From Bacillota bacterium (GTDB lineage: Bacteria; Bacillota_I; Bacilli_A; RF39; UBA660): DNA of 64,000 nucleotides. Under the pieces are notes generated by a model. The model saw nothing but the letters and a program-made list of their open reading frames with translations, did no database searches and was not told the origin of the DNA. The DNA lies in contig SVAI01000001.1 of the NCBI GenBank assembly GCA_015059495.1, positions 435,246 to 499,245 of the forward strand. The letters run 5' to 3'. The translations under genes and the position numbers were made by a program. Positions 4,599 to 57,832 of this stretch are shown here, piece by piece (the stretch's first letter is position 1; the number at the start of each line of letters is the position of its first letter).

Positions 4599-4630
4599 AA
4601 AAGATGTTTTAATAAACATCTTTTTTATTT
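4598..4630. terminator. bidirectional rho-independent terminator between the convergent lexA-like and TasA-like genes
   Basis: aaaagatgttt-taat-aaacatctttt hairpin flanked by A-run and T-run. Confidence 0.55.
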
Positions 4631-6476: not shown

Positions 6477-6503
6477 AAGAGGTATATTAATACCTCTTTT
6501 AAA
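6474..6503. terminator. rho-independent terminator
   Basis: aaaagaggtata-ttaa-tacctctttt hairpin with flanking T/A runs, between the LexA remnant and the convergent TasA-like gene end. Confidence 0.5.
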
Positions 6504-8070
6504 TTGCTAATTTATAAGGATTATCATATGATCCATCACCTTCAAGTACATATACATCATTTTTTAAATAAAGTGCAGGTCTAACACCATTCTTTTCAAA
6601 TAACATTCTCTCAGTTATATCACCACTCGAAGAAAGACAATAAACTGTATTTGCTGAATTTGATGTTCCAGAAGCAGTAATAGTAAATAAAGTTATATAA
6701 TTATATTCATTCCCAACTCCATATAGCCAAGAGGACGAACCGCAAAAAGTGTACCTATAACTCCAAAGTGAAAAATCAGTTTCCAAACATGTTCTTTTAT
6801 CATAATTATCACTACCACTAGTAGAATAACCGAATTCACTAACAGACATTAATCCGATCTTTCCAACCCACGATGATGTTCTTACAACAGTGTCACTACA
6901 ATCAACACCACCACTACAATATTTACCGTTATTTTCACTTCTTTCTAAATTATACATATTTTTAGGATTAAAACTCAACGTTGAATATCCTTTAGAACCT
7001 GTATACCATTTAGCTTCTTGAATCATATTTAAAGCATTACTCTTAATTGTTGATGTAGGTCTTTTTACAGTTCTTCTATTATAATAATCACCAACCCAAT
7101 ATCCATCAGCACCTATGGTATAATTACCCAAATAATCGGTATTTAATTCTCTCATAAGAAACGACCCAGGATATAAAGTACCATCTTCATATACAGATTC
7201 ACCCCATTGATTAACACCAGTACCTTGATTAACAGCTTTAATCGAACTATCCCAAGAATACAATCCTAAATATCCACTATGTATAATCTTAACTCGTGAA
7301 TCAGCATTACCTTCACCATCTTCGATATTATTAAAAATTCCCATAATTTGCCACTTTTGACAGGTATAAATAGACATTTCATCAGGATTAGAAGTATTAC
7401 AATTAAAATAAACATAATTATTTGGAAATTTTCCTACATATCTTAAATTATTATCTGAAGTTCCAACATCACCTAAAGTATCAACACCATCATATTCCAA
7501 ATAACTAGCACCTGCATTTTTATCTTCAATAATCTTAGTAGCTAATCTAATTTTAGGTACTTCCTCAGATAGTTCAACTTTAGCTCTAAATGTTTTACCC
7601 TTATTATTATCTTGATTTAAGTTAGTCTCTTTAAAAGTAATCTTTAATGTATAATTGTGAGTTTGACCAACACCAATTGCAACATTAGATGCTATTTTTG
7701 TATTTGTTTCTGGACAAGTAGTTTGATTAATATTATAACCTTCGCTACTAATTAATTCATAAACTAAATCACTTTTATTAGCGAAATCATTTATAACATC
7801 ATTTAAATATATATCATAAGCGGTATCAACTGTACCAGTATTTCTAACACTAAATGCTAAAGTTACATAGTCCCCTGGTAACATATTTGAAGTTGTACCA
7901 ACAACATTACCATTTTCAAAAGTAACCTCCATATACCCAGTAACAATAACAGTATTACTAGCCGTAGCATTCCCACCTATACTCGCAGTAAAATAAGCAT
8001 AAGATGTAATAGATACTAAAGCAATAATTAAAACACTTAATATATACAATATAGTTTTTTTATTATTCAT
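6499..8070 (-). CDS. secreted TasA/camelysin-like N-domain protein with C-terminal extension (paralog)
   Basis: The signal peptide is followed by SYAYFTASIGGNATASNTVIVTGYMEV. Residues 24-160 are identical to the 8087-9754 product. The central YDGVDTLG...YVYFNC...QWG...RELNTDYLGN module and the C-terminal NGVRPALYLK...NPYKLAI are shared with paralogs. Confidence 0.6.
   Translation of the reverse strand: MNNKKTILYILSVLIIALVSITSYAYFTASIGGNATASNTVIVTGYMEVTFENGNVVGTTSNMLPGDYVTLAFSVRNTGTVDTAYDIYLNDVINDFANKSDLVYELISSEGYNINQTTCPETNTKIASNVAIGVGQTHNYTLKITFKETNLNQDNNKGKTFRAKVELSEEVPKIRLATKIIEDKNAGASYLEYDGVDTLGDVGTSDNNLRYVGKFPNNYVYFNCNTSNPDEMSIYTCQKWQIMGIFNNIEDGEGNADSRVKIIHSGYLGLYSWDSSIKAVNQGTGVNQWGESVYEDGTLYPGSFLMRELNTDYLGNYTIGADGYWVGDYYNRRTVKRPTSTIKSNALNMIQEAKWYTGSKGYSTLSFNPKNMYNLERSENNGKYCSGGVDCSDTVVRTSSWVGKIGLMSVSEFGYSTSGSDNYDKRTCLETDFSLWSYRYTFCGSSSWLYGVGNEYNYITLFTITASGTSNSANTVYCLSSSGDITERMLFEKNGVRPALYLKNDVYVLEGDGSYDNPYKLAI
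7571..8004. repeat. copy 1 of a ~434 bp near-identical direct repeat (5' coding region of a TasA-like paralog)
   Basis: Direct reading shows the DNA at 7571-8004 and 9252-9685 is identical except for about 3 positions (for example gctc/gtac near the start and a/g at 7620/9300). Confidence 0.8.
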
Positions 8071-8086
8071 CTAAATCCTCCTTATC

Positions 8087-9754
8087 TTAATTTGAAATAG
8101 TTAATTTATATGGATTAGATGATGTTCCTTCACCTGAAGCTATAGATACTTCATTTTTTAAGAATAATGCTGGACGAACACCACCATTTTGGCTTGCATA
8201 ACCATCACTTGTAGTAATATCAAAGCCATGGTATTCGCTCGTCCAATAACCAGCACCACTAATGGAGCTACCGGTATAAGCAACACAATCAGTCCAATAA
8301 TTCATTGTTGTGGACGGAGACAAAAAATTATCCAAATAATCGATTTTAATAATCCATGAACTAGTTATACAATCACCTGTATATGATGTATTATTATAGT
8401 CTAAGCAAACATTTCTACTTAAACCATTAACTGGTTTTATAGAATAAGCAAAATCACTAGTATATATTAAAGCAATTTTTCCAATCCATGTTGTTGTTCT
8501 TACAACTGTATCATTGCAAACATTATCATAATCTTCCATATTTTTACACTGATCAGGATTATTATTACTTCTCTCACCTACATAAAAATTTTTAGCTGTC
8601 CAAGTTGAATACTCATGTTTTAAGGTTGTAACATCATAATATCCTTCTCTAGCTCCCAAATTCCATTTTACAGTTTGAATCATATTTTGAGCATTTTGAT
8701 TTAAAGTTGTTGTTGGCATGTCTATTTTATGTATAACTTCATCGGTTCCACTATTATAAATGTGGGTATACCACTTACCATCTGTTCCAACTGTTATATT
8801 CCCTAAGTAGTCAGTATTTAATTCTCTCATAAGGTCTGCACCTTCATATGGTGTACCATCTTCATATGTTGATGCACCCCATTGATTAATACCCCAACCC
8901 TGATTTATTTCTTCTACAGAATCATCCCAAGAATAATTACCTAGTGAATCATCTCTCATAATCTTTATACGAGAAGCACTATTTCCATTTTCGTCTTCAA
9001 TATTATTAAATACACCTACTATTCTCCATTTTTCACAAGTTTCATCATTCATTAAAGATGGATTTGTAGTTGTACAGTTAAAATAAACATAATTATTTGC
9101 ATCACTACCTACATATCTTAAGTTATTATCTATTGTACCTTCTTCACCTAATGTTGCAACACCATCATATTCTAAATCAGTTGCACCATTATTTTTTAAA
9201 TCAGTTAAAAAACTTACTATACCATTTGTAGGACTATCATTATTTTCCTCAAGTTCAACTTTAGTACTAAATGTTTTACCCTTATTATTATCTTGATTTG
9301 AGTTAGTCTCTTTAAAAGTAATCTTTAATGTATAATTGTGAGTTTGACCAACACCAATTGCAACATTAGATGCTATTTTTGTATTTGTTTCTGGACAAGT
9401 AGTTTGATTAATATTATAACCTTCGCTACTAATTAATTCATAAACTAAATCACTTTTATTAGCGAAATCATTTATAACATCATTTAAATATATATCATAA
9501 GCGGTATCAACTGTACCAGTATTTCTAACACTAAATGCTAAAGTTACATAGTCCCCTGGTAACATATTTGAAGTTGTACCAACAACATTACCATTTTCAA
9601 AAGTAACCTCCATATACCCAGTAACAATAACAGTATTACTAGCCGTAGCATTCCCACCTATACTCGCAGTAAAATAAGCATAAGAAGCTATTGTTGCAAC
9701 ACTTATTACAAAAATTGATAAAACCAAAAGAAAAGATTTTACTCTTCTATTCAT
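8087..9754 (-). CDS. secreted TasA/camelysin-like N-domain protein with C-terminal extension (paralog)
   Basis: Same N-terminal motif and domain as above. It is 16 bp upstream of the next paralog with an AGGAGG RBS in the gap, so the two are probably co-transcribed. Confidence 0.6.
   Translation of the reverse strand: MNRRVKSFLLVLSIFVISVATIASYAYFTASIGGNATASNTVIVTGYMEVTFENGNVVGTTSNMLPGDYVTLAFSVRNTGTVDTAYDIYLNDVINDFANKSDLVYELISSEGYNINQTTCPETNTKIASNVAIGVGQTHNYTLKITFKETNSNQDNNKGKTFSTKVELEENNDSPTNGIVSFLTDLKNNGATDLEYDGVATLGEEGTIDNNLRYVGSDANNYVYFNCTTTNPSLMNDETCEKWRIVGVFNNIEDENGNSASRIKIMRDDSLGNYSWDDSVEEINQGWGINQWGASTYEDGTPYEGADLMRELNTDYLGNITVGTDGKWYTHIYNSGTDEVIHKIDMPTTTLNQNAQNMIQTVKWNLGAREGYYDVTTLKHEYSTWTAKNFYVGERSNNNPDQCKNMEDYDNVCNDTVVRTTTWIGKIALIYTSDFAYSIKPVNGLSRNVCLDYNNTSYTGDCITSSWIIKIDYLDNFLSPSTTMNYWTDCVAYTGSSISGAGYWTSEYHGFDITTSDGYASQNGGVRPALFLKNEVSIASGEGTSSNPYKLTISN
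9252..9685. repeat. copy 2 of the ~434 bp near-identical direct repeat
   Basis: See copy 1. The repeat lies in the adjacent paralog, 1681 bp apart in the same orientation. Confidence 0.8.
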
Positions 9755-9907: not shown

Positions 9908-11047
9908 TTATTTAAAAAACATAAACACTACTAAGAATAAAATTAGCAAGATTAAAACTATACATCCATTAGCTCTTTCAGAAGTAGTTGCTTTATCACT
10001 TACACCAACAGCCATAGATGATAAATATCCACCAATTAAACCACCAATGTGTGCAAAATTATCAATGCCAGGTGTAATAAATCCTAAAGCTAAATTAAAT
10101 ATGATTAATGGTACTATTTGAGATTTAATAACTGTACTTAAATATAATCTATAATGATAACCAAAGTAAACTAACGCACCCATAAGACCAAATATAGCAC
10201 CAGATGCACCAACACTATAAGAATTTGAGAATACCATAGACATTAAACATCCAACTATACCACTAAATAAATATATTAATATATATTTAGTTTTACCTAG
10301 GAATGTTTCTATTTGATTACCTATTACATATAAAGCATACATATTAAATATTAAATGCATTATATTAGCATGCATAAACATAGCACTAAATACTCTATAA
10401 TAGTCTCCTGCTACAAATAATTCTCTATTAGCAGCAAAAGTATATAACATTGATGGATACATATAACTTAATAAATATATTAATACATTTATAACTATTA
10501 AAGCGTATGTAATAACTATTGTTTTAGGTTTAAAAGTCTTCTCATAAGCTTTATTTTCTTTAGCAGTCTTTTCATTAATATCATTAGTAACATTAATAAT
10601 TAAATCAATACCTTTAGTATCATTTAATAAATTATCCTTTATATTAGGAAAAGCATCTTTAATAAACTTATTTTTCTTAATATCTCCAACATTTTTAATC
10701 TTAACTGAATCCATATCTTTATCTTCAACTAACTTAACACCAGTATTTAGATCTAAGAATATATTTAAAGTATTAACTTTAAAAGATAAAGTTTTCTTTT
10801 TTATTTGTTTTATAACATTCTTAGTTTTATATAAATCTGCCTCTATTTGTTCATTATTATGAATATAATTAGTATTAATTCTTATAATTCTATAAGGACC
10901 ATCTAAATTCTCTAACCATACTTCATTTTTAACACCATTAACTATAATTGGTTGATAGTTTTCTTCAGTAATAAAATAATGAACTAAACGCATAACGATG
11001 TCTTCTTTTTTATCAACTACAACGTTCATAATTCTACCTCTTTTCAT
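9908..11047 (-). CDS. rhomboid family intramembrane serine protease with N-terminal cytoplasmic domain (GluP/YqgP-like)
   Basis: C-terminal half is polytopic with the catalytic GASGAIFGL (GxSG) motif and the later AHIGGLIGGY (His). The stop codon is embedded in an aaagtctt-tata-taagacttt terminator hairpin. Confidence 0.8.
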   Translation of the reverse strand: MKRGRIMNVVVDKKEDIVMRLVHYFITEENYQPIIVNGVKNEVWLENLDGPYRIIRINTNYIHNNEQIEADLYKTKNVIKQIKKKTLSFKVNTLNIFLDLNTGVKLVEDKDMDSVKIKNVGDIKKNKFIKDAFPNIKDNLLNDTKGIDLIINVTNDINEKTAKENKAYEKTFKPKTIVITYALIVINVLIYLLSYMYPSMLYTFAANRELFVAGDYYRVFSAMFMHANIMHLIFNMYALYVIGNQIETFLGKTKYILIYLFSGIVGCLMSMVFSNSYSVGASGAIFGLMGALVYFGYHYRLYLSTVIKSQIVPLIIFNLALGFITPGIDNFAHIGGLIGGYLSSMAVGVSDKATTSERANGCIVLILLILFLVVFMFFK

Positions 11048-13636: not shown

Positions 13637-14404
13637 TTAATCAATCAATTTTTTTAGTTTTAATATCGCACTTTTTTCAATTCTAGATACTTGAGCTTGT
13701 GATATATCTAAACTAGATGCTATTTCACTTTGTGTCATACCATAAATATATCTACTTTCTAATACTTCTCTTTCTCTTAATTTAATATGTTCTAAAGCTT
13801 TTCTTAATGCTATTAAACTATCTTTATCTTTATTAGTATCTGCTATTTGATCACATAAATATATAGTATCTCCATTATCACTATATATTGGATCATATAA
13901 AGAATATACATCTTTTAAGCTATTTAATGCTAATCTAATATCATATTCATTTAAATTTAAATCTCTTTTAATATCTTCTATTGAAGGTTCTTTCCCATTA
14001 TTAATTAAATAATCTTCTTTATACTTTAATATTAAATAAGCATTATCTTTAATACCTCTAGATATCCTAATACTTGTATTATCTCTAATATATCTTTTTA
14101 TTTCTCCTAATATTAGAGGTACTGCATATGTAGAAAATAAACAATTATATGATAAATCAAAATTATCTACTGCTTTAATTAATCCTATTACCCCTATTTG
14201 AAATAAATCATCTAAATTATTATTTTTATTATTAAATCTCTTAATAATAGATAATACTAACTTTAAATTACCATTAATTATTATTTCTTTATTTTCTTTC
14301 TTACCATCTCTTAATCCTTTAAATAACTCTACCATATCTTTATTTGATAATACTTTTAAATTATTAGTATTAATACTAGTTATTTCAACACTATATTTAC
14401 TCAT
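13637..14404 (-). CDS. SigF/SigG-family (group 3, sporulation-type) RNA polymerase sigma factor
   Basis: Aligns along its length with B. subtilis SigF: DLFQIGVIGLIKAVDNFDLSYNCLFSTYAVPLILGEIKRYIRDN, DNGDTIYLCDQIAD, LREREVLESRYIYGMTQSEIASSLDISQAQVSRIEKSAILKLKK. No spoIIAA/AB or spoIIGA neighbours. Confidence 0.8.
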   Translation of the reverse strand: MSKYSVEITSINTNNLKVLSNKDMVELFKGLRDGKKENKEIIINGNLKLVLSIIKRFNNKNNNLDDLFQIGVIGLIKAVDNFDLSYNCLFSTYAVPLILGEIKRYIRDNTSIRISRGIKDNAYLILKYKEDYLINNGKEPSIEDIKRDLNLNEYDIRLALNSLKDVYSLYDPIYSDNGDTIYLCDQIADTNKDKDSLIALRKALEHIKLREREVLESRYIYGMTQSEIASSLDISQAQVSRIEKSAILKLKKLID

Positions 14405-37949: not shown

Positions 37950-38150
37950 TTATACCTCCTTTAAAAATAAAAAACACGAAAACATTTCAAAGGACGAAAT
38001 ATTTCCGTGGTACCACCTTTATTGGTTCTTTATAGTTTTATAGGTCTACACCTTTTAAACTCCAAGTAGTGTATTTCAACTTAATTACTTTAAATCATTT
38101 TCACCAACCATGATCTCTCTTTATAAATTAATTAAATCTACTTAATTACT
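37950..38150 (-). promoter_or_regulatory. T-box riboswitch leader (predicted Tyr specifier) upstream of the HAD/HD-tyrS operon
   Basis: The minus-strand transcript contains AGAGAG (stem I start), a region with UAC codons (GAAAUACACUACUUGG), the T-box sequence AAAGGUGGUACCACGG, and a 14 bp terminator hairpin CACGGAAAUAUUUC...GAAAUGUUUUCGUG followed by UUUUUUAUUUUU. A candidate promoter TTGTTT-17-TAAAAT lies at plus 38161-38189. Confidence 0.7.
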
Positions 38151-38205
38151 CATCAACATTTAACATACATATTTTAACATATTTAAATATTTAAAACAAG
38201 GAGTA

Positions 38206-39894
38206 TTAACGGAAACCGCCTCCGCCGCCTCCGCCACCGAAGGAACCTCCTCCTCCGCCACCGCTAGAGAAGCCTCCACCACCAGATGAATAACTTTGAG
38301 CTCTAGATCTAGCAGCACTAGCAGCACTAACAGATGTATAAGAGAAGTCATGTATTAAAATAACATTATTATACATATCATCAGTAATAACATCAGGATA
38401 TAAGTTTTTAAACTCTTTAGCTACTTCTTTAGCCATACCAAATATTTGAGCATATATTAAATATTCTCTCCACATTTGTACTTCAATAGCTCTTTTATCA
38501 CCCATATTATCAAATTCTTTAAAGAACTTCTTTAAACCAGCCATATGAGCAGCTTTTTCATTTAATATGTTAGTAGCACCCATAACTTGTTTTTCTCTAC
38601 CAAACATACCCTTAGTCATAACATTATCTATATATTGTTTATCACTAGATAACTTAGTATATTCATAACTTTCAACCTTATCAAACCAACCTAATACTTT
38701 AGAATAATGATTAGAACAATATCTCTTAAATTCATTCTTTTCTAAGATATTATCTTTAGCAGCAATCTTCATCATATCCCATAATTCTAATTCTTTAGCA
38801 TCAATTGGATCTTTAACAAATTCTATCTTAGTTTCTTTATTTTTAAATATACCCTTTTCTTCAGTAGTAACACTAACATTACCATCCTTAATCCATTTTA
38901 ATATAACAGCACCTAAATAATCAGTTTTTTGTTTAGTTAAATTATATTCATCAGCAACTAAATACGCTCTACCAAAATCATCTTTAAATGGTAAATCTCT
39001 AAATGCTAATACATCTTTACCAGGAAATACTTTATTTTTAATCTTAGAACCAGCATTTTTACCAGCAACACCAATAAGAATTGGAATACCTATAAACATA
39101 AATCCGTAGAATAATATACCTAAAATACCAAAGATAATATCCATAAAACTATCTTCATCTTCACTATATTTTGTAGTTCCCTCTTCAGCACCAGCAAATA
39201 TATCATCCCAACTCTTATTAATTTTATTTGTAGTATTAAAATAATTAGCAGGGAACTTAACTAAAACAGTCATATAATCACTAGATTTTAAACCTTTTTC
39301 AGGAGGTTGCATTTCAATATAACCATCATAAACATATGCAGTACCACCATAATTACCATAACCCCATACATCTAATGTATCTTCATATTTTTTATCACTA
39401 TAAATCTTAATATATACATCTTTAGGTTTAGGATTCATATCATATGGTATTAATTGCCAAAATAATATTTGATAACCATCAGTAGTATTATAAATATAAT
39501 TCTTAATAGTATATTTTAAAGTATAAGTTCTACTACCATAATTAGATATACCCCAACATAAATCTACTTCATTACCTGTTTTATATATACCATTCTTATA
39601 CTTTTTACTATCAAACGATGACTTAACATTCCAACTATTTAAATAAGTATATTCAGTACCACTATCATCTACTACACTAAAATCAGTAATAGTTGAATTA
39701 CCCATATTATAATATGGATGATATCCTTCAGTACCTTCATTTAATTTAGCATTCCATACTTCAGTAATATGTGCATCACCATTTGAATCAACATATATAT
39801 CCATACTTATTTTATTTAATGAATTAGCACTAACACTAGCACTAAAAATAAAAAACATAACTACTATACTTATCAAATAATATAACTTCTTCAT
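38206..39894 (-). CDS. DUF2207-family membrane protein with Gly-rich C-terminal tail
   Basis: Signal peptide, large extracytoplasmic domain, central TM pair (IIFGILGILFYGFMFIGIPILIGV), cytoplasmic domain, and terminal SSGGGGFSSGGGGGGSFGGGGGGGGFR tail. Confidence 0.7.
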   Translation of the reverse strand: MKKLYYLISIVVMFFIFSASVSANSLNKISMDIYVDSNGDAHITEVWNAKLNEGTEGYHPYYNMGNSTITDFSVVDDSGTEYTYLNSWNVKSSFDSKKYKNGIYKTGNEVDLCWGISNYGSRTYTLKYTIKNYIYNTTDGYQILFWQLIPYDMNPKPKDVYIKIYSDKKYEDTLDVWGYGNYGGTAYVYDGYIEMQPPEKGLKSSDYMTVLVKFPANYFNTTNKINKSWDDIFAGAEEGTTKYSEDEDSFMDIIFGILGILFYGFMFIGIPILIGVAGKNAGSKIKNKVFPGKDVLAFRDLPFKDDFGRAYLVADEYNLTKQKTDYLGAVILKWIKDGNVSVTTEEKGIFKNKETKIEFVKDPIDAKELELWDMMKIAAKDNILEKNEFKRYCSNHYSKVLGWFDKVESYEYTKLSSDKQYIDNVMTKGMFGREKQVMGATNILNEKAAHMAGLKKFFKEFDNMGDKRAIEVQMWREYLIYAQIFGMAKEVAKEFKNLYPDVITDDMYNNVILIHDFSYTSVSAASAARSRAQSYSSGGGGFSSGGGGGGSFGGGGGGGGFR

Positions 39895-39959
39895 AAACGT
39901 TCACATCCTCATATTCATTATATAATATTTTAAATAAAAAAAGAAGATAAAAAATCTTC

Positions 39960-41855
39960 TTAATTAGTTCTTAAAGTAAAGTATCCTGCTTTATTAGCAG
40001 AAGGATTATCTATTCTAGCATATTCACCATTTATATGACTATCAGTATAAGTAGTTCCAGCTCCACCTTTTAATTTAGTACTACCAATAAACATATTACC
40101 AGCACTATAAGATGAAGGATGAGCAAAATCACTAGGTACATAAACAGTTTCAAGTTCAGTACAATAATTCATCATATATTTAAGACTAGTAACCTTAGAA
40201 GTATTAAACTTAGGACCTAAATCAAGAACTCTAATAGATGATAACCAAGTAAACATAGCTTGCATATTAGTAACATTTGATGTATCAAAATTATTGCCTA
40301 AATTTAAATCAGTTAATGCATGCATACTAGCAAACATTGATTGCATAGTTGTTACTTTAGAAGTATCAAACTTATCACCTAAATCTAAACTAGCGACATT
40401 CTTTAACCCTGCAAACATACTTCTCATATAGCTAACATTTGATGTATCAAAATTAGAACCCAAATCTAATGATTCTAAAGCATCACAACTTTCAAACATA
40501 CTATTCATATTAGATACTCTACCAGTATTAAATTTATCACCTAAATCTAATGATTTAAGATTCTTCATATTATAAAACATATATTTCATATCACTTACAT
40601 TAGATGTATCAAAATTAGATCCTAAATCTATACTTTCCATACTTTGTAGATTAAAAAACATTCCTGACATATTCTTAACATTACCAGTATTAAAATTATT
40701 ACCAAAATTAATAGATGTAATATTAGCACAATTATAAAACATATCTTCCATAGTAGTAACATCACTTGTATCAAAGCTGTTTCCAAAATCTATAGCTTGT
40801 ATATAATAACTATTATAAAACAATCCATACATATTCTTAACACGAGATGCATTTAATTTTTCTAAATTTAAACTAGAATATCCCATGTTATTTGAAAACA
40901 TATAAGAACTATTTTCATTCATATAAATAGTAGGATTTTCAGAACTTATATATAATATTCCATTATAAACAAAAGCATAAATATCATCATCTCTATTATC
41001 AGATGAAACATCCATAATTGTAACATTTTCTAATATTTGAGAAGGTAAATCAGATATTTTTGTATTACTAATGGATAAAGCACGTATATATAATTTACCA
41101 TCATTTATAGTGCTTAATAAAGTATTATTATAATATTCCTCACATGTTAGACCAGATGTTTCAAAATCACTTTTACTAGCACAATAAGCATCTAAATCAA
41201 CACCAACATGATTTCTAGCCGATTCAACTGATAACTCACTAACTATTTGATTAAAGGTAGGACCATCAACAAGTTCAGCTACTCTTTCAGCTTCTTTATA
41301 ATCATTTATACTTATTTTACCCTTAAACTTTTTACCCTTATTATCATCTTGATTAGTTCCATCATCTTTAAAATAGAAAATTATTGTATAAGCATGAGCT
41401 TTACCAGCGCTTATCGAACAAGCAGAAAAAATTTTAGATTCTTCTCCTACCTCACTTGGAACAACTCTTTCTCCATCTACAGAACAACCATCTTCAAAAA
41501 TTTCAGAATTATGTTCATAATTAGATATGGAGTCAACATAATAAACTAAATCATTTTTATCAGCAAATGTATTTATTATTTCAGATAAATATACATCATA
41601 AGTAGTATCCATATTTCCTGAATTATAAACAACAAAAGACTTTTCTACACGTTGTGTTGGATAAGCATTATTTAAAGATACTTGATCGCCATCATAAAAT
41701 TCTAATCTTAAATCTCCAGATGTAATAACTGTATCATAAACACTCTCGTTACCTTTAACATTAGCTACGAAATACGCATAAGATGCACTAGTAACCAACG
41801 ATAATATTAAAAAGGCTGCAACTAATACAAGTGTTTTTATATATCTATTCTTCAT
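39960..41855 (-). CDS. secreted TasA/camelysin-like N-domain protein with C-terminal DUF285-type 26-residue surface repeats
   Basis: N-terminus SYAYFVANVKGNESVYDTVITSGDLRL plus a TasA-like domain (YLSEIINTFADKNDLVY shared with the 4625-6283 product). The C-terminal half has at least 8 tandem repeats of the form LDLG.NFDTSNVT.M..MF. Confidence 0.65.
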   Translation of the reverse strand: MKNRYIKTLVLVAAFLILSLVTSASYAYFVANVKGNESVYDTVITSGDLRLEFYDGDQVSLNNAYPTQRVEKSFVVYNSGNMDTTYDVYLSEIINTFADKNDLVYYVDSISNYEHNSEIFEDGCSVDGERVVPSEVGEESKIFSACSISAGKAHAYTIIFYFKDDGTNQDDNKGKKFKGKISINDYKEAERVAELVDGPTFNQIVSELSVESARNHVGVDLDAYCASKSDFETSGLTCEEYYNNTLLSTINDGKLYIRALSISNTKISDLPSQILENVTIMDVSSDNRDDDIYAFVYNGILYISSENPTIYMNENSSYMFSNNMGYSSLNLEKLNASRVKNMYGLFYNSYYIQAIDFGNSFDTSDVTTMEDMFYNCANITSINFGNNFNTGNVKNMSGMFFNLQSMESIDLGSNFDTSNVSDMKYMFYNMKNLKSLDLGDKFNTGRVSNMNSMFESCDALESLDLGSNFDTSNVSYMRSMFAGLKNVASLDLGDKFDTSKVTTMQSMFASMHALTDLNLGNNFDTSNVTNMQAMFTWLSSIRVLDLGPKFNTSKVTSLKYMMNYCTELETVYVPSDFAHPSSYSAGNMFIGSTKLKGGAGTTYTDSHINGEYARIDNPSANKAGYFTLRTN

Positions 41856-41955
41856 ATTATCACTACCTTATACATATTATCATTTTTAATAAAAAAAGTA
41901 AATTAATTTTATACAATATATTTCAAATAAAAAAAGAAGATATAAATCTTCTTTT

Positions 41956-43740
41956 TTATTTAATACCTCCACCAGCAGAGTCACAGTCAGACCATGACGA
42001 AGGTACACTACCGCTTGGTGTATATCCAGCGCTATATCCAGTATCACAAAATGCACTAGAACCATTCGTAACATTTGATATATCAAAATTATTTCCAAGA
42101 TTTAAGCTAAAATTTTGAGCATTATAACCCGCATCAGTAAACATATTTGACATATCATAAACATTAGAAGTATTAAAATTATTTCCTAAATCTATTGTTA
42201 AAGAATTAGCATTATAACCAAATTCCCCAAACATATGAGACATATTAGTAACACTAGATGTATCAAAGTTATTTCCTAAAACCAAATTAATATTAGCACC
42301 AGAAGCTCCAGCATTATAAAACATACTACTCATGTTTCTTACATACTTAGTATATAAATTATCTATGTGATCTATTCTTTCAAAAGGCATACCACTTAGT
42401 AATTCAGAAGTACTATAAGGAACTACCATATTTTCAAAATCAACAACACTAATTTTTCTATTATCTTCCCACGTCATAAAATCATAAGTATATTTATCCA
42501 TTTCTTCATCATAACTTAACAAACTAGGATTTTTTACAACATATACATCATCTCTTGCTACTCCAGTAGAATTAAAAGCTAATGTATATTTAGAATCATT
42601 TTTTATATACTTATAAATATATAAATCAAGTGTATTACCAGTAGGAATACAATTACCTAAATATCTATTTGGAGGATCATTTAAACATTCTTCAAGTGAA
42701 ATACCATGAATGCTACCATCTACAAAATTTTTTATAGAAACAAGCTGAGATTTTAATTCACAAGAAAAATTATATGCTCCGTTCGAATCCAAAAATTCAT
42801 AACAACTATTTTCATCATCAAAAATCAAATTATATGTTTTAGACTGATATTTTTGTTTATCAGCGTTAAATTCGCACATATAAGCAGAATTATCATTTTG
42901 GCATTCTTCTAATGTATCATATTCATTACGTGACATTGGTATAGTATATTTATTTTCTTTCATTTCACATAAAACTGTAAATCCCTCACTAGAATTTTCT
43001 AACGCTTGAGTATTACATTCCTCTAATGAATAGTAATTCGGATCAAAAAACTCCTCTTCATAATATTCATAATTAGCAATCTCCATGGTTGCTGGAGAAC
43101 AACTACCATAACCATTATTACTTATAGCATTATTACAATCTTGTTCATTGCTATAATTCTCATGATTATATTCATTTGCATAAAGATATGCAAATACAGG
43201 TGTTTGTGCAACTTCAATTTCTTCAATTCCAATTATAGAACTAAATGTAACCCCTTGATTATCACCTTGATCAGTATCATCAACTTTAAATGTAATAGTT
43301 AATATATAATGATGAGTTTGACCAACACCTATTCCTACTCCACTAGCAAACTTTCCACTTACAGATGGTGCAACTGTTTCATCTATATTAAAACCACCAT
43401 CATCAGATACTAAAGTATACACCAAATCATTTTTATCAACAAATGAATTAATTACATTATTAAAATATAAATCATAATAAGCTGTTACAGTACCAGTGTT
43501 AGACACTTCAAATGGTACCATAACGCTTTGACCCGGTATCATATTATCAGAAGAGCCAATAATATTACCTTGACTAAAGCTAACAGACATATTACCTGTA
43601 GTTATTACCATTTCTTGTGATCTACCAGCAACAGCCCCACTAAAATATGCATAAGATACTAAAGATACTATACAAAAAACAGAAAGACATATTGAAATTA
43701 TTGCTATTTTATTCTTTTTAGATAAATTCATTTTGCACAT
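41956..43740 (-). CDS. secreted TasA/camelysin-like N-domain protein with C-terminal DUF285-type repeats
   Basis: N-terminus SYAYFSGAVAGRSQEMVITTGNMSV. C-terminal repeats LGNNFDTSSVTNMSHMF / LGNNFNTSNVYDMSNMF / LGNNFDISNVTNGSSAF. Confidence 0.65.
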   Translation of the reverse strand: MCKMNLSKKNKIAIISICLSVFCIVSLVSYAYFSGAVAGRSQEMVITTGNMSVSFSQGNIIGSSDNMIPGQSVMVPFEVSNTGTVTAYYDLYFNNVINSFVDKNDLVYTLVSDDGGFNIDETVAPSVSGKFASGVGIGVGQTHHYILTITFKVDDTDQGDNQGVTFSSIIGIEEIEVAQTPVFAYLYANEYNHENYSNEQDCNNAISNNGYGSCSPATMEIANYEYYEEEFFDPNYYSLEECNTQALENSSEGFTVLCEMKENKYTIPMSRNEYDTLEECQNDNSAYMCEFNADKQKYQSKTYNLIFDDENSCYEFLDSNGAYNFSCELKSQLVSIKNFVDGSIHGISLEECLNDPPNRYLGNCIPTGNTLDLYIYKYIKNDSKYTLAFNSTGVARDDVYVVKNPSLLSYDEEMDKYTYDFMTWEDNRKISVVDFENMVVPYSTSELLSGMPFERIDHIDNLYTKYVRNMSSMFYNAGASGANINLVLGNNFDTSSVTNMSHMFGEFGYNANSLTIDLGNNFNTSNVYDMSNMFTDAGYNAQNFSLNLGNNFDISNVTNGSSAFCDTGYSAGYTPSGSVPSSWSDCDSAGGGIK

Positions 43741-43742
43741 CC

Positions 43743-44888
43743 CTACTTTTCTAAAATTATAACTGGTCGAACACCATAATGAACCTGATAGTATTTATAA
43801 TCATATTCATAATTATCCCAAACGAATTTTCCAGTTTTGTCCACTGCTACAATACTATAAGCACCAGATGCAGTACCAGACCAATAAGACGTTTGATAAA
43901 CCCATTCAGGCGCATTATGTGTACAGTCATTACCCAAAGACCAGCATCCTAAGCTATTCAATTCACTTTCAGTTATTAATCTGCCTGATACTCTTGCACC
44001 CTGACCATTTAAATAATTTACATAATATTCTACGTATTCAGCAATAGAATTAATATAAGTTCCATCATCATTTTTATTATTAGTATAAACATAAGCATGA
44101 TAATTATTACCATATTCAGGTTTAACATGATTTTGTGAATCATTCCAATAATTTATACTTGAAAATGGAACAGGAGAACCGTAACCAGCAAATTGCAAGC
44201 CATCTTTAAATCCATATTGAGCACCATCATCTCCAACATTTAAATTCCACTTAGAAAGAAGTTTAACATGTTCTTCGTCTTCTTGGCCTATTACATAGAA
44301 TTGTTCATTTGCTATTTTAACTATAGATCCAACAGTATATAAATCTCCTGATACAATCGTATATGGTGGCTTTGTATCTTCACTTAAACCTATTTTTGCG
44401 CTAAAAATCTTACCTTTATTATCATCTTGGTTTACACCAGTTTCATCAAAAGTTACTCTTAGTGTATAATTTTGTGTTGTACCAACAGGTAAACTTATAT
44501 GACGTTTAATTGCTTGATTAACGCTTGGACACGTTGCTTGTGCAACTGTTGTTCCAGAACCATCAATAAGTTCACATACTAAATCTTCTTTTGTAACAAA
44601 TGTATTTATAATATCATTTAAATCAACACTATAAAACATATCTACTGTACCTGTATTTTGTACAGAAAACGATTTTTCTATATATTGTCCTGGCAACATA
44701 TTTGATGTTGAACCAATAACACTGCCATCAATATAAGTTATTTCCAGCTGACCTGTTGTAACAACTGTTGCTCGTGATACACCAGTAATAGTTGCAAAGA
44801 AATGAGCGTAAGACACAGTTGAAATTAAGCAAACAATAAAAGCACATATTGCAACTAAAAATAATTTTTTATTCTTAGTTAATTTCAT
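43743..44888 (-). CDS. secreted TasA/camelysin-like N-domain protein with distinct C-terminal domain
   Basis: N-terminus SYAHFFATITGVSRATVVTTGQLEI plus a TasA-like domain. Ends in GVRPVIILEK (compare GVRPALYLK / GVRPALFLK in cluster-1 paralogs). 2 bp from the next paralog. Confidence 0.6.
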   Translation of the reverse strand: MKLTKNKKLFLVAICAFIVCLISTVSYAHFFATITGVSRATVVTTGQLEITYIDGSVIGSTSNMLPGQYIEKSFSVQNTGTVDMFYSVDLNDIINTFVTKEDLVCELIDGSGTTVAQATCPSVNQAIKRHISLPVGTTQNYTLRVTFDETGVNQDDNKGKIFSAKIGLSEDTKPPYTIVSGDLYTVGSIVKIANEQFYVIGQEDEEHVKLLSKWNLNVGDDGAQYGFKDGLQFAGYGSPVPFSSINYWNDSQNHVKPEYGNNYHAYVYTNNKNDDGTYINSIAEYVEYYVNYLNGQGARVSGRLITESELNSLGCWSLGNDCTHNAPEWVYQTSYWSGTASGAYSIVAVDKTGKFVWDNYEYDYKYYQVHYGVRPVIILEK

Positions 44889-44916
44889 ATTTAAGTCTCC
44901 TATATCATTAATGTAA

Positions 44917-44945
44917 TTATATAATAATTTTTATTTTCTAACAAC
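44917..44945 (-). promoter_or_regulatory. sigma-A-type promoter for the 44888 to 39960 TasA-like gene cluster
   Basis: Minus strand TTGTTA (plus 44940-44945), 17 nt spacer, TATAAT (plus 44917-44922), then an AGGAGA RBS before the ATG at 44888. Confidence 0.5.
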
Positions 44946-44992
44946 AAAAAAATAGAATTATTTACATTAAAAAAAGATTGGATAAACCAATC

Positions 44993-45547
44993 TTAGAATT
45001 TAACTTGTACGTTTTGTCTTTCTTCTGCAGAAGCTTCAAAGAAGTTAACTTCTTTAAATCCTAACATACCAGCAATTAATACTGTAGGGAATGTTTCTCT
45101 CTTAGTATTGTATTTTCTAACAATATCATTGTAGAATTGTCTAGCATATTGAATTTTATCTTCTGTTTCACTTAGTTCTTTTTGTAATGAATTAAAGTTT
45201 TCATTAGCTTTTAATTCTGGATAAGCTTCACTTAAAGCAAATAACTTAGAAATAGCTTTAGTTAATTCTCCATCAGCTTTCATTTGATCCTCTGGAGCAC
45301 TAGCACTAACATAAGTATTTCTAGCAGCAATTACAGCTTCTAAAGTTTCACTTTCATGTTTAGCATAACCTTTAACAGTTTCAACTAAATTAGGAATTAA
45401 ATCAAATCTTCTTTTTAATACAGTATCGATTTGAGCCCATTGATCTTTAACTTTATTTCTTAAAGATACTAATGAGTTATAAGTTGAAATTACCCAAAGA
45501 ACTAATAAAACAACGATAACTAGTACAACAATTAACCATGTTGGCAT
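44993..45547 (-). CDS. LemA family protein
   Basis: N-terminal TM then SLRNKVKDQWAQIDTVLKRRFDLIPNLVETVKGYAKHESETLEAVIAARN, the canonical LemA sequence. Its own terminator aagattgg-ataaa-ccaatctt lies at 44973-44992. Confidence 0.85.
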   Translation of the reverse strand: MPTWLIVVLVIVVLLVLWVISTYNSLVSLRNKVKDQWAQIDTVLKRRFDLIPNLVETVKGYAKHESETLEAVIAARNTYVSASAPEDQMKADGELTKAISKLFALSEAYPELKANENFNSLQKELSETEDKIQYARQFYNDIVRKYNTKRETFPTVLIAGMLGFKEVNFFEASAEERQNVQVKF

Positions 45548-50438: not shown

Positions 50439-51548
50439 TTAATTGTTATATGTAATTTGCCTACTTATTATCTTCTCTATTATTACAAATAACTCTACTA
50501 TTATTCTACTATCATTTTCATCTTTTTTCAAAACTTTTTTACTAATTATTTTCTCATCATCACTTAAATTTAATTTTAACTTTTCTTCTACTAACTTATT
50601 AACCCTATTATCAAAATCACTATCTTCATAACTATATTCTTTATATTTATATTCCCTTTCTCTTAATAAATATAACTTTCTACCTAATATAGATATTATT
50701 TGATATCTATCTGTATCATAATTACTTAATCTACTTTTTAATATCTTATATTCTTTATTATTATCATATAATAAATTATATCTATACTTTTTAGTATATT
50801 CTTTTACCTTATATGTTTTAGGTAACTCTACACTAACACTATACCATTTTCTAGCATATACTTTACCTTGAGCACACACTCTAATACTATCTATATCATT
50901 TATTTTAATATCACCAGATATTAATAAATCTCCTTCTTTAACTATTTTATTTAATTTAGTTACAATAACCCCACTAGAAGATATAATCTTACTTATTTCT
51001 CCATCTGTGCTAGATACAACATCACAACTATTATATTTAATACTATTCTTAACATCTTTTCTTTCTTCTAAACTAATTTTATAAGTCATACCAATACTTT
51101 CTATTTCTATCCATTCTAATCTAGACTTATATTCTTCTAACATCTTATCTTTTATACTTTTTAATTCTTCATAACTCTTTTTAATACTTAATCTTTTAAT
51201 ATCATAACTATCTAAAGTATTACTAATATCTTTAACTAAATTAATATTATTAGATTCAATATTTATATCTAATATAATATTACTAATAAATAAAAAAGTA
51301 ATTATCCCAAGTATTACTATAATATAATTAACAATATTATTTTTAATACTATTTATAACATATTTAATATTATAATTCTTAATAACCTCTACTTTATAAT
51401 ATTTATTTAATATAGATAAATCATCATTATTAATATAACATGTAATATAATTATTATTATATTTTAAATCATATACATTAATATTATTAATAAATATAAT
51501 ATTAATAAAATCATCTATATCACACTTAATCTTAATTAGTATCTTCAT
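50439..51548 (-). CDS. sporulation protein YqfD-like
   Basis: 369 aa with a single TM (IIVILGIITFLFISNIIL). Its position immediately downstream of a YqfC-like gene and upstream of ybeY/era matches B. subtilis yqfC-yqfD synteny. Sequence evidence alone is weak. Confidence 0.45.
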   Translation of the reverse strand: MKILIKIKCDIDDFINIIFINNINVYDLKYNNNYITCYINNDDLSILNKYYKVEVIKNYNIKYVINSIKNNIVNYIIVILGIITFLFISNIILDINIESNNINLVKDISNTLDSYDIKRLSIKKSYEELKSIKDKMLEEYKSRLEWIEIESIGMTYKISLEERKDVKNSIKYNSCDVVSSTDGEISKIISSSGVIVTKLNKIVKEGDLLISGDIKINDIDSIRVCAQGKVYARKWYSVSVELPKTYKVKEYTKKYRYNLLYDNNKEYKILKSRLSNYDTDRYQIISILGRKLYLLREREYKYKEYSYEDSDFDNRVNKLVEEKLKLNLSDDEKIISKKVLKKDENDSRIIVELFVIIEKIISRQITYNN

Positions 51549-56533: not shown

Positions 56534-57832
56534 TTATTCTTCTACGTATGGTCTTAATATTTTAGAACGAGATGGATGTCTTAGTTTTCTTAAAGCTTTT
56601 GCTTCAATTTGTCTAATTCTTTCTCTTGTTACATTAAATATTTTACCAACTTCTTCTAAAGTTCTTGGATGTCCATCATTTAAACCAAATCTTAATGCAA
56701 GAACTTTTTGTTCTCTTTCAGTTAATGTACCTAATACTTCAATAATATCATTTCTCATTATATTATAAAATTGAGGTTCAATAAATAAATTATCATTATT
56801 ATCATCTGGTATGAAATCTGCTAAAGTACTATCATCTTCACTATCACCAACAGGTGTTGAAATAGATACAGGTTCTTGACTAATTCTATATATATCTCTT
56901 ACTTTTTCTACTGGCAATTTAGTCATTTCTGCTAATTCTTCCATACTTGGCTCTCTACCATGTTCAGTAACAAAATTACGTTCAATTCTTCCAACTTTAT
57001 TTATAGTTTCTACCATATGAACTGGAATTCTAATTGTTCTAGCTTGGTCAGCTATAGCTCTAGTAATTGCTTGTCTAATCCACCAAGTAGCATATGTAGA
57101 AAACTTAAACCCTTTAGATAAATCAAATTTATCTACAGCCTTCATTAAACCAATATTACCTTCTTCAATTAAATCTAAGAATAGCATACCTCTACCAATA
57201 TATCTTTTAGCAATACTTACAGTTAATTTTAAATTATGACTAGCAAATTCTTTTCTTTGTTCAGAAACAAGTTCTTCATATTTTTTCTTTTCTTCTAATA
57301 AAGATGGATCAACAACATTAATTTTATTATATAATTTTATTTCTTCATTAACATCTTCTAGCGCTTTCCTATAATTAACTAACAAAGCAAAAGCTTCAGC
57401 TTCTTGTTGAGCACTATATAAAGGAATTTTACCAATATCCTTTAAATACATTCTAACTGGATCAAAATCTGTAGCAGATTCATCATATTGTAATAAATCA
57501 AATTCTTTAAGTTCTTTTTCAATAGCCTCTTCTTCAGCATCAGAAAGTAGTGCTTTATCAGCATCTTCTTCTTCTTTTTTATTTAATATAGATATTAATT
57601 TATTTGTAGATGCATCTAATTCTTCATTAACATTTGATAATTTGTTAAGAATAGAATAAAAAGCATCATTACTATCAAGCAAATTATATACCAATGTCTT
57701 AGTTAATTTAATATTATTATCCTTCATAAATTTTAATATATTATTAACTAAAGCTAATAATTCCTTCTTTTTAGAAGGTATTTCTGCTATATTATTTTGT
57801 ATATATAAATTAATTTTTTCAATATCTGTCAT
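56534..57832 (-). CDS. RpoD-like (group 1/2) RNA polymerase sigma-70 factor, second copy
   Basis: Regions 1.2-4 present: [87 protein letters not shown] terminator aggtgca-ataa-tgcacct lies downstream at 56504-56522. Confidence 0.85.

Follow-up and report, generated by a model that had tools for sequence, protein, structure and literature searches.

Three adjacent ORFs, here called C, B and A, on the minus strand of the 64-kb stretch of DNA analysed (the window; Table 1) each fuse a small TasA-type fibre-subunit domain to a ligand-binding domain of a different kind, and near-identical strains carry a replacement of the entire three-gene block. Judged from sequence, the block thus looks like an exchangeable cassette of surface adhesins that uses a biofilm fibre as its scaffold. 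The block was aligned with L015, a contig from a near-conspecific MAG. The flanks of the block are 93-99% identical to L015 at the nucleotide level, whereas the interior of the island is either 63-71% identical or unalignable. The gene content of L015 differs precisely from the lemA terminator to the end of gene A, and outside these limits LemA is 100% identical and the DUF2207 protein 91% identical between the two. Further alleles of A-like genes were found in two other contigs (L022 and L023). Comparison of the C-terminal modules across strains, as suggested in an earlier note on this DNA, thus revealed that the cargo is exchanged between near-identical strains.

Table 1. Features of the three-gene block and its flanks, in window coordinates
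Feature	Coordinates	Strand	Basis or remark
lemA	44993..45547	-	Pfam LemA 1e-61; flanking context, outside cassette
lemA terminator	44974-44994	-	
Strain-variable island	40040..44952	.	Nucleotide identity to L015 falls inside limits; promoter lies within upstream edge at 44952
Sigma-70-like promoter TTGTTA-17-TATAAT	44916..44944	-	lemA/C gap
Gene C, 381 aa	43743..44888	-	ORF; C-terminus GVRPVIILEK
C signal peptide, residues 1-28	44805-44888	-	Motif-predicted; ends S-Y-A
C putative donor strand and TasA-like jellyroll, residues 29-173	44370-44804	-	
C C-type-lectin-like cargo, residues 174-381	43746-44369	-	
Gene B, 594 aa from first ATG	41956..43740	-	Gene caller: Met4 start, 591 aa
B signal peptide, residues 1-31		-	Motif-predicted; ends S-Y-A
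B N-module, residues 32-178	43207-43647	-	
B five Cys-pair mini-repeats, residues 196-364	42649-43155	-	[YF]x(S/T)xEEC-x(8-15)-C
B short DUF285 block, residues 457-566	42043-42372	-	3-4 repeats of 30 residues
Gene A, 631 aa	39960..41855	-	ORF; C-terminal cap after solenoid
A signal peptide, residues 1-27		-	Motif-predicted; ends S-Y-A
A N-module, residues 28-188	41292-41774	-	
A helical linker, residues 198-251	41103-41264	-	
A LRR-like solenoid, residues 292-600	40056-40982	-	Pfam/TIGRFAM scores, AF2, Foldseek
A 8 clean 27-residue PARCEL repeats, residues 351-566	40158-40805	-	
AT-rich terminator-like hairpin	39934..39961	-	Overlaps A stop codon
DUF2207 membrane protein, Gly-rich tail	38206..39894	-	N and C domains both match; outside cassette
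Terminator of DUF2207 gene	37975-38009		

Transcription signals, flanking genes and export functions

The promoter that the earlier note had assigned to the cluster was located in the gap between lemA and C, and the ATG of gene C is preceded, at a distance of a few bases, by a GGAG ribosome-binding site. The region has no excess of promoter-like matches (44, against 65.8 expected from shuffles), so the cassette promoter is a positional rather than a statistical call. At the end of gene A there is a hairpin with an 8-bp stem and a 5-nt loop followed by U7AUUU (dG -7.1 kcal/mol, z -2.0), which is conserved in L015. A consensus scan missed it because its stem has fewer than three G-C pairs. From its features, this hairpin probably terminates the cassette transcript as a weak terminator.

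The position of the cluster between lemA, with its own terminator, and a DUF2207 Gly-tail protein, all on one strand, was borne out by Pfam matches and by the terminator call. The proposal that these two genes act as functional brackets was not. LemA and DUF2207 genes are directly adjacent, with no TasA-like genes between them, in three other loci (L065, L067 and L102), and an unrelated 240-aa ORF separates them in L026. The bracketing therefore appears incidental, the cassette being an insertion into a pre-existing pair. Among 80 DUF2207 loci, no gene with the N-terminal module of A, B and C (the N-module) was found beside DUF2207 outside the window's own lineage. Neither lemA nor a DUF2207 gene is present at cluster 1, the second group of paralogs in the window, or at about 15 other loci of the family.

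These data also bear on the alternative that the cluster, lemA and the DUF2207 gene form one unit with a dedicated SipW-type export and assembly pathway. All of the genes are on the same strand and separated by short gaps, the signal peptides are TasA-like, and in a second MAG (L102) a triple cluster of N-module and DUF285 genes lies 2.5 kb from a LemA-DUF2207 pair, which may reflect a loose association. We nevertheless consider a single unit improbable, given the terminator of lemA, the adjacency of the pair elsewhere, its absence from other family loci, and the DUF2207 gene's own TATAAT and GAGGA ribosome-binding site, which follow the hairpin in the 65-nt upstream gap. The dedicated pathway itself found no support, since no SipW or other type I signal peptidase was detected near any of about 25 loci. 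The S26/S24 peptidase search covered the window's small ORFs, 21 related loci (about 300 kb) and 10 kb past the window edge, all with negative results. No accessory gene recurs beside family members, and neither a TapA-like nucleator nor an anchor protein was found near the examined loci. CanX, a member of the TasA superfamily, is also encoded without a co-located dedicated signal peptidase or TapA-like accessory (PMC12518558). Co-location with such neighbours is therefore typical but not obligatory.

The shared N-module and its signal peptide

The N-module, of ~145-150 residues, is common to A, B, C and the three paralogs of cluster 1 (4625-6283, 6499-8070 and 8087-9754). BLASTP among the six paralogs gave 31-51% identity (E 1e-22 to 1e-55) over the N-terminal ~175-190 residues, in agreement with the earlier note. 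The motif YLSEIINTF(A/V)DKNDLVY, described there as conserved across clusters, is exact only in A and in 4625-6283; the four other paralogs have a degenerate core. The invariant core positions in the six-paralog alignment are I94, N95, F97, K100, D102, L103 and V104. HMM annotation matched A, B and C to Peptidase_M73 (PF12389), the TasA/camelysin family in Pfam, at 26.5, 26.7 and 29.5 bits, respectively (curated cut-off 22.5 bits). By sequence, the PDB entries that matched best were TasA (5of1/8aur, E about 2e-3) and AbpX, an archaeal protein. AF2 models of C and A were confident (pLDDT 87-89) and contained a jellyroll β-sandwich like that of TasA, preceded by a low-confidence, unstructured post-signal segment. 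When these models were searched with Foldseek, the TasA fibre 8aur_A ranked first for C and second for A, with a probability of 1.0. By Pfam match and predicted fold, the description of the N-module as TasA-like holds. For the NCBIfam models of the TasA equivalog (NF046066) and BsaA (TIGR04090), C scored 15 bits (cut-off 450) and 21.3 bits (cut-off 60), far too low in both cases, and A and B had no match.

The Pfam family name is the one point that favours secreted camelysin-like metalloproteases or otherwise soluble enzymes, a reading to which we attach very little probability. HExxH or another zinc motif was found in none of the six paralogs, the fold is that of the TasA jellyroll, and the cargo consists of predicted binding domains (LRR and CTLD). 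A search of the six paralogs also revealed no LPxTG motif and no second hydrophobic segment.

Searching with a profile built from the six N-modules retrieved 3,933 cluster representatives (E<=1e-3). Among the 150 best, the module is located at the N-terminus or at most about 20 residues from it. Of 91 representatives examined for domains, 87 matched Peptidase_M73, and the cargo included DUF285 (28), Flg_new (8), LRRs, a pectate-lyase-like domain, GH5, Big_3 and LamG. One mosaic protein, P0035, combines C-type cargo with B-type Cys-repeats and DUF285. Together, the profile family, the diversity of cargo, the mosaics and the exchange between strains support the earlier suggestion of one conserved N-terminal handle with interchangeable adhesin-like cargo. 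The variable surface layer proposed in the same note is plausible as a hypothesis. Other MAGs contain cargo-less family members of 180 aa in tandem, as expected for plain fibre subunits; no such cargo-less major subunit was found in the 64-kb window. The family is carried by uncultured Erysipelotrichaceae, 'Bacilli' and 'Tenericutes' MAGs. The bearer of the cassette is an uncultured low-GC gut or rumen bacterium.

A, B and C each have an S-Y-A↓[YH]-F motif at the putative end of the signal peptide, and in all six paralogs the signal ends in S-[YF]-A. Motifs of the S-Y-A-Y-F type occur in 141 of 148 representatives, and the alignment columns that hold S26, A28 and F30 in the first sequence show at least 90% conservation. 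Mature TasA begins at residue 28, with F29 within the donor strand (PMC9674648). The conserved S-Y-A-Y-F site matches this mature N-terminus, with cleavage predicted from the motif. No lipobox (L-x-x-C) is conserved in the six paralogs, and neither A, B nor C has a prepilin leader (G↓[FM]-[TS]-L-x-E).

It is possible, though unlikely in our judgement, that the proteins are instead monomeric membrane-anchored adhesins, in which an uncleaved N-terminal helix serves as a signal anchor, the jellyroll is a mere stalk carrying the lectin or LRR cargo across the wall, and no fibre is formed. The AF2 models contain a long helix at residues 4-24, which, left uncleaved, would account for cell retention of proteins that have no C-terminal anchor. 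SipW, chaperone and anchor genes are absent nearby, and all paralogs in the window bear bulky cargo, an unusual feature for a major fibre subunit. Several features argue against such an anchor. The small-x-small site S-Y-A is highly conserved right where the hydrophobic region stops, the invariant F located two residues past the site copies the processed N-terminus of TasA, and hydrophobic regions of about 17 residues, as in the paralog signals, are typical of cleaved signals. Despite their conservation, the 12-20 residues past the site are predicted to lack structure, and the cargo-less 180-aa members would be pointless as stalks.

Cargo domains of A, B and C

The earlier note described eight or more tandem repeats of ~26 residues in two of the proteins and assigned them to TIGR02167/DUF285. 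For A this was largely correct. The array has eight clean repeats, but of 27 residues, flanked on both ends by degenerate copies, and scores above cut-off with both TIGR02167 (PARCEL; 130.8 bits in six stretches, cut-off 30) and DUF285 (127 bits, cut-off 25), as well as 31.5 bits with LRR_5. The AF2 model of A (pLDDT 88.9) has one short strand per 27 residues, and its Foldseek matches comprise an LGR5 LRR and the BspA-type LRR 4h09 in addition to the TasA fibre. For B the description stood only in part: there are three clear copies and one degenerate copy with a 30-residue period, and DUF285 scored 56 bits, above its cut-off, while TIGR02167 scored 21.7 bits, below its own.

PARCEL members of Listeria and Mollicutes are lipoproteins. 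The cargo of A, with a solenoid like 4h09, is a genuine array of the PARCEL family (TIGR02167; PMC2996958), but here a TasA-like module replaces the lipobox N-terminus, and the period is 27 (A) or 30 (B) residues. Homologs, including the N-module-bearing P0294 and P0324, are named BspA family LRR surface proteins by NCBI.

In C, Pfam detected no DUF285 and the cargo reached no model. Two homologs of this cargo (P0202 and P0247) have precomputed matches to PF19789 (DUF6273). The C cargo ends in a G-V-R-P-V motif, and its closest known counterparts are DUF6273 and the C-type-lectin-like N-terminal domain of the Thomasclavelia ramosa IgA peptidase (9qa6), the latter at only 15% identity; unlike the IgA peptidase, C has no peptidase domain after its CTLD-like cargo. 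T. ramosa belongs to Erysipelotrichaceae.

Related filament systems and a proposed mechanism

The cassette proteins resemble TasA, CalY (camelysin) and BsaA in their predicted Sec signal, which ends in [S/T]-aromatic-A followed by x-F, and in a putative N-terminal strand followed by a jellyroll. The N-module is shorter, at about 145 residues compared to about 234 in mature TasA, and lacks the C-terminal segment that forms the second inter-subunit interface in the TasA fibre (PMC9674648). The cassette proteins also differ in carrying 200-450 residues of cargo after the N-module, and the locus has no sipW or tapA. In TasA-superfamily loci, tip and minor subunits are predicted to co-assemble by donor-strand complementation; those of AbpX/Tafi similarly combine a TasA-like domain with an extra adhesin part, but their loci also encode a major subunit together with a dedicated signal peptidase I, and in many cases anchors, none of which was seen here (bioRxiv 10.64898/2026.01.04.697558).

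Modular pilins are widespread, and in Streptococcus sanguinis the type IV pilins PilB and PilC carry a vWA and a lectin module, respectively (PMC8179133). They share with the cassette proteins a small N-terminal filament-subunit module, a bulky C-terminal adhesin graft and many architectures. Where those pilins have an α1 helix and a G↓F-T-L-x-E site, the cassette proteins use a TasA-type jellyroll as carrier, and their site is of the signal-peptidase-I type. The likeness is one of design, not membership, and implies no type IV machinery. CTLD cargo was also found behind type IV prepilin leaders (P0227, P0260, P0268 and P0276), as was DUF285 cargo (P0284, P0368 and P0306). Both kinds of cargo thus recur on filament-subunit carriers.

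The explanation we favour, at roughly an even chance, is a self-contained, strain-variable cassette encoding modular TasA-like subunits that are exported by Sec and present their adhesin cargo, possibly on fibres held together by donor strands. The cassette would consist of the promoter, C, B, A and the weak terminator, inserted within an older lemA-DUF2207 pair. Each product would comprise a Sec signal ([S/T]-aromatic-A↓x-F), an amphipathic segment of ~12-20 residues, a compact jellyroll and ligand-binding cargo. The predicted cargo is C-type-lectin-like in C, Cys-pair repeats with a short DUF285 LRR in B, and a helical linker with a long PARCEL/BspA-type LRR solenoid in A. After Sec export, a type I signal peptidase encoded elsewhere would cut after S-Y-A. 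The freed strand, Y-F-x-A-x-V, could then complement a neighbouring N-module's jellyroll, in the manner of TasA fibres, and the paralogs may thus homo- or co-polymerise, or cap the fibre. The cargo would jut from the fibre as an adhesin, by the same logic as in pilins that bear a grafted module. Replacement of the cassette through recombination between strains would diversify binding specificity or antigenicity.

The shared N-terminal module and its TasA-type signature

The open reading frames of genes A, B and C of cluster 2 are present as the earlier note had described them. The first 175-190 residues of their products are homologous to one another and to the three paralogs of cluster 1 (BLASTP, 31-51% identity, E 1e-22 to 1e-55), and 26 columns are invariant in the six-way alignment of this shared N-terminal domain (N-module). 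A, B and C all scored above the Pfam cut-off for Peptidase_M73, the family that the note had named. The 19-residue motif YLSEIINTF(A/V)DKNDLVY, said to be conserved across both clusters, is exact in A and in the cluster 1 gene at 4625-6283, but only a degenerate core is left in the other four paralogs. The coordinates of all features discussed here are collected in the table.

Features of the window and of the comparison loci
Feature	Location	Coordinates	Strand	Remark
Cluster 1 paralog	window	4625-6283		exact 19-residue motif
Cluster 1 paralog	window	6499-8070		
Cluster 1 paralog	window	8087-9754		
Rhomboid intramembrane protease	window	9908-11047		immediately upstream of cluster 1
Sporulation-type genes and FemAB	window	13637-14404, 50439-51548, 56534-57832		YqfD, extra sigma factors
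63-aa ORF	window	38160-38351	as DUF2207 gene	over Gly-rich tail, other frame
DUF2207 gene	window	38206-39894		Gly tail
Gene A	window	39960-41855	minus	PARCEL/DUF285 cargo
Return of identity to L015	window	~40040		last 75 nt of A
Gene B	window	41956-43740	minus	Cys-pair repeats and DUF285
Gene C	window	43743-44888	minus	putative C-type-lectin-like cargo
Promoter-like TTGTTA-17-TATAAT	window	44944..44916		
Loss of identity to L015	window	44952		just past lemA terminator
lemA terminator	window	44994..44974		
lemA	window	44993-45547		
Unrelated 240-residue ORF	L026	2891-3613		LemA/DUF2207 gap
829-residue family member	L016, L017	1052-3541 (both)		
Three N-module+DUF285 genes	L102	10001-20545		between rpoC and aminoacyl-tRNA synthetase gene

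The best PDB sequence matches of a profile built from the six N-modules were TasA (5of1, 8aur; E about 2e-3) and the archaeal bundling protein AbpX. AlphaFold models of C and A (pLDDT 87.3 and 88.9) have a common layout, in which an N-terminal helix corresponding to the signal peptide leads into a segment without structure, modelled with low confidence (residues 25-48 of C, 25-36 of A), and then into a compact beta-sandwich. When these models were compared with the PDB using Foldseek, the TasA fibre 8aur_A was the top match of C (E 2.4e-5) and came second for A, and the Sulfolobus 0406 thread was also among the matches of C. The signal peptide ends in S-Y-A followed by [Y/H]-F, a motif class found in 141 of 148 family representatives. 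In an alignment of 91 full-length representatives, conservation is 90% or higher at the positions matching S26, A28 and F30 of the first sequence. Mature TasA begins at residue 28, its donor strand comprises residues 28-38, and F29 makes one of the hydrophobic contacts (PMC9674648); the window proteins therefore keep the processing-site and donor-strand signature of TasA. Collectively, these results show that the N-module has the TasA fold and that its signal and N-terminal signature are of the TasA type. All six paralogs lack a zinc motif, a sortase signal and a second hydrophobic segment, and a reading as metalloproteases was rejected because the zinc motif is missing.

In both clusters the N-module subtypes follow the same order, two genes of the B/C/E/F type and then one of the A/D type, the latter being marked by an insertion of 15-18 residues and the exact YLSEIINTF.DKNDLVY motif. 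The corresponding block of L015, a near-conspecific MAG contig, likewise ends with an A-type gene. This shared arrangement could point to a set sequence of subunits or a division of roles. The cluster 1 genes at 6499-8070 and 8087-9754 (83.7% DNA identity over 896 nt) encode N-modules that are nearly identical residue for residue over about 130 residues from S-Y-A, whereas their signal peptides and C-terminal domains differ, which suggests a recent duplication or a gene conversion confined to the N-module.

Cargo domains and the extent of the family

The domains carried behind the N-module (cargo) differ from gene to gene. A is a strong PARCEL/DUF285 protein (TIGR02167 130.8 bits, DUF285 127 bits, LRR_5 31.5 bits), and its model shows a helical linker (residues 198-251) leading into an LRR-like solenoid with one short strand per 27 residues, for which Foldseek returned LRR ectodomains and the BspA-type LRR protein 4h09. 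The earlier note had assigned eight or more repeats to two of the proteins. This is correct for A, which has eight clean repeats of 27 residues with degenerate copies at both ends, but wrong for B, since B has just three clear copies and one degenerate copy with a period of 30 residues. B does pass the DUF285 cut-off (56 bits) but falls short of the TIGR02167 cut-off (21.7 against 30 bits), and five Cys-pair mini-repeats, [YF]x(S/T)xEEC...C, lie between its N-module and its DUF285 repeats. No DUF285 was detected in C by Pfam scan, and a PDB sequence search with its putative C-type-lectin-like cargo gave chance matches only. The cargo of A, B and C consists of ligand-binding types of domain. 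Pfam matched nothing in the C-terminal halves of the cluster 1 proteins. Their terminal sequence, G-V-(R/F)-P-(A/V)-x-Y/F-L and then NPYKL, resembles the G-V-R-P-V end of the lectin-like domain of C, and these halves may represent a larger relative of that fold.

The same cargo is also found on other carriers. Of 118 homologs of the C-type domain, 25 lie behind TasA-like modules, and the domain also follows type IV prepilin leaders (e.g. P0227, P0260, P0268 and P0276), plain signal peptides and other N-modules. Among the best 120 matches of the A-type cargo, 44 have TasA-like modules, and P0284, P0368 and P0306 have prepilin leaders. This recurrence on type IV prepilin carriers supports a parallel with the modular type IV pilins (PMC8179133). 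In P0186, P0201, P0225, P0234, P0249 and others, the lectin-like domain sits on further N-termini whose hydrophobic segment ends in, for example, G-T-S-Y-A-L-F, V-V-Y-A-A-L-S or G-F-A-A-V-A-T. Such N-termini are candidates for TasA-like or pilin-like carriers too divergent for the N-module profile.

A word-indexed homolog search with the N-module profile gave just 20 matches, mainly fragments, so an exhaustive search of cluster representatives was needed to see the family. This returned 3,933 representatives at E<=1e-3, of which 2,046 reached E<=1e-10. In the best 150 of the 3,933, the N-module lies at the N-terminus or at most about 20 residues from it, and most of these proteins are 330-1,200 residues long. 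Peptidase_M73 was matched in 87 of 91 scanned representatives. Downstream of it, the 91 carry, among others, DUF285 (28), Flg_new (8), several LRR types, an ALK/LTK glycine-rich domain, pectate-lyase-like domains, GH5, DUF4832/DUF4874, Big_3 and LamG. BLAST assigned A-type cargo to 36, C-type to 11 and cluster-1-type to 20 of 168 sequences, and one protein, P0035, combines a C-type domain with the Cys repeats and the long-period DUF285 of B. The modularity proposed for the window, a conserved N-terminal handle with varied cargo, thus holds family-wide, extending to DUF285, Flg_new, LRR, GH5 and other domains. In an 829-residue member, seen in L016 and L017, the N-module profile also matched in part around residues 337-399, 586-611 and 800-825, and this protein may contain internal copies of the module's last strand motif.

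Cargo-less members of 180 residues occur in tandem pairs or triplets in other MAGs. The main rival to a polymerising module is the reading as monomeric adhesins that are retained by a signal anchor which is not cleaved off; it accords poorly both with these cargo-less proteins and with the strictly conserved cleavage-type motif. Because it would explain why any other anchor is lacking, we rate it as unlikely rather than negligible.

Replacement of the cassette between lemA and the DUF2207 gene

The identities of LemA and of the Gly-tailed DUF2207 protein on either side of cluster 2 were borne out, as was the lemA terminator. The window and L015 are closely similar in the genes around the cassette (amino acid identity of 98% for FemAB, 100% for LemA, 91% for DUF2207 and 95% for a HAD/HD protein), and sliding nucleotide identity is 93-99% on both flanks. 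Between the two breakpoints listed in the table the whole gene block differs. A right edge at 40636 was discarded, as it arose from BLAST extension through diverged sequence. L015 has two genes where the window has three. The first encodes a 509-residue protein (length of the ORF counted from the preceding stop codon) whose cargo is of another kind and contains Cys, and the second is A-like but just 43% identical to A, with six clean repeats against eight. L022 carries an allele of the L015 type (86% identical to L015, 44% to A) and L023 a third allele. These results show that the cassette has been replaced between strains. Given how sharp this strain-level replacement is, the cassette is a likely target of diversifying selection, be it exerted by the host, by phage or through ligand specificity.

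At its downstream end, A shares its stop codon with an AT-rich hairpin of 8 bp that carries a U-tract (dG -7.1 kcal/mol, z -2.0). The hairpin is kept in L015, and a TATAAT and a GAGGA lie between it and the DUF2207 start. The promoter-like site reported for the cluster is present at the upstream edge, but sites of this kind are no more frequent than expected in so AT-rich a region. From these sequence signals, the cassette seems to be transcribed as a unit of its own. The 63-aa ORF over the DUF2207 tail is almost certainly spurious.

The proposal that lemA and DUF2207 form a functional bracket did not hold. Across 80 metagenomic loci, no N-module genes were found at DUF2207 outside the window's own lineage. 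LemA directly adjoins DUF2207 in L065, L067 and L102, and in L026, where DUF2207 is 71% identical and FemAB-LemA synteny is kept, the gap holds an unrelated ORF without a signal peptide. The interval is therefore a lodging site of foreign genes, seemingly a recurrent one, and the flanking genes lie outside the system. L102, which comes from another MAG, has three N-module+DUF285 genes 2.5 kb from the LemA-DUF2207 pair; this proximity could be coincidence or a loose association.

The window has a G+C content of ~25% and nearly all of its genes are on the minus strand. Its sequence matches a stretch of a 1.0-Mb contig from JGI metagenome 3300021326 without a difference. Its housekeeping genes (FemAB, recO, era, tyrS, YqfD, sigma factors) make the neighbourhood that of a walled spore-former. 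The nearest public genome record, the MAG of L015, is labelled 'uncultured Tenericutes', and other family-bearing MAGs are labelled uncultured Erysipelotrichaceae (RUG12834) or uncultured Bacilli. Sporulation-type genes and FemAB are present, on contigs of about 1 Mb, despite the 'Tenericutes' label. This label is probably misapplied to what is a walled lineage of Bacilli with a small genome.

Export, assembly and a possible display scaffold

A dedicated SipW-type export and assembly pathway, as the earlier note had suggested, was not supported. Pfam scans of window ORFs up to about 410 aa revealed no S24/S26 peptidase, and no peptidase was found in the 10 kb past the right window edge. Neither a B. 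subtilis SipW probe nor the S-x-S-M-x-P box motif matched any ORF of the window or of 21 loci. When ORFs lying up to 6 kb from an N-module gene were compared with one another by BLAST, no neighbour family recurred, and only the synteny between the window and L015 emerged. The rhomboid protease next to cluster 1 was dropped as a processing enzyme, since it does not recur beside other family loci. TasA, AbpX, AbpA and Tafi loci usually contain signal peptidase I (bioRxiv 10.64898/2026.01.04.697558), but the CanX branch of the TasA superfamily has no such gene at its locus and polymerises without helpers (PMC12518558). Given this precedent, the missing peptidase weakens the claim that the module is cognate to SipW and not the claim that it is a TasA-like fibre subunit.

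We envisage that a general signal peptidase would cut A, B and C after S-Y-A, that donor-strand complementation between N-modules could then build a homo- or heteropolymer or cap a fibre, and that the cargo would be displayed as adhesins. More broadly, it is possible, though doubtful, that a TasA-type donor-strand polymer requiring neither a chaperone nor SipW serves as a general surface-display scaffold in uncultured Bacilli with small genomes from gut and rumen (Erysipelotrichaceae and lineages labelled 'Tenericutes'). This would be a 'modular TasA pilus' with adhesin or enzyme cargo on every subunit, and strains would exchange whole cassettes and so alter its specificity.

Current accounts present the fibres of the TasA superfamily as matrix scaffolds of plain subunits with a few tip proteins. 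Our literature search found no report of a TasA-like module joined to PARCEL or lectin-like cargo, nor of such proteins in Erysipelotrichaceae. Every component is already known, and the proteins exist under generic names: some N-module+DUF285 proteins are called 'BspA family leucine-rich repeat surface protein' at NCBI, and present database labels offer only this or hypothetical. New here are the strain-variable cassette and the occurrence of this architecture as a large family: across thousands of protein clusters of uncultured Firmicutes from gut and rumen, the same small jellyroll is the N-terminal carrier of many cargos. If the modules polymerise, this would account for the display of PARCEL/BspA-type adhesins without a lipobox or sortase signal, and would carry the 'modular pilin' principle beyond type IV pili to fibres of the donor-strand kind. 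A modular TasA pilus, if it exists, would be a third carrier system beside sortase pili and modular type IV pilins.
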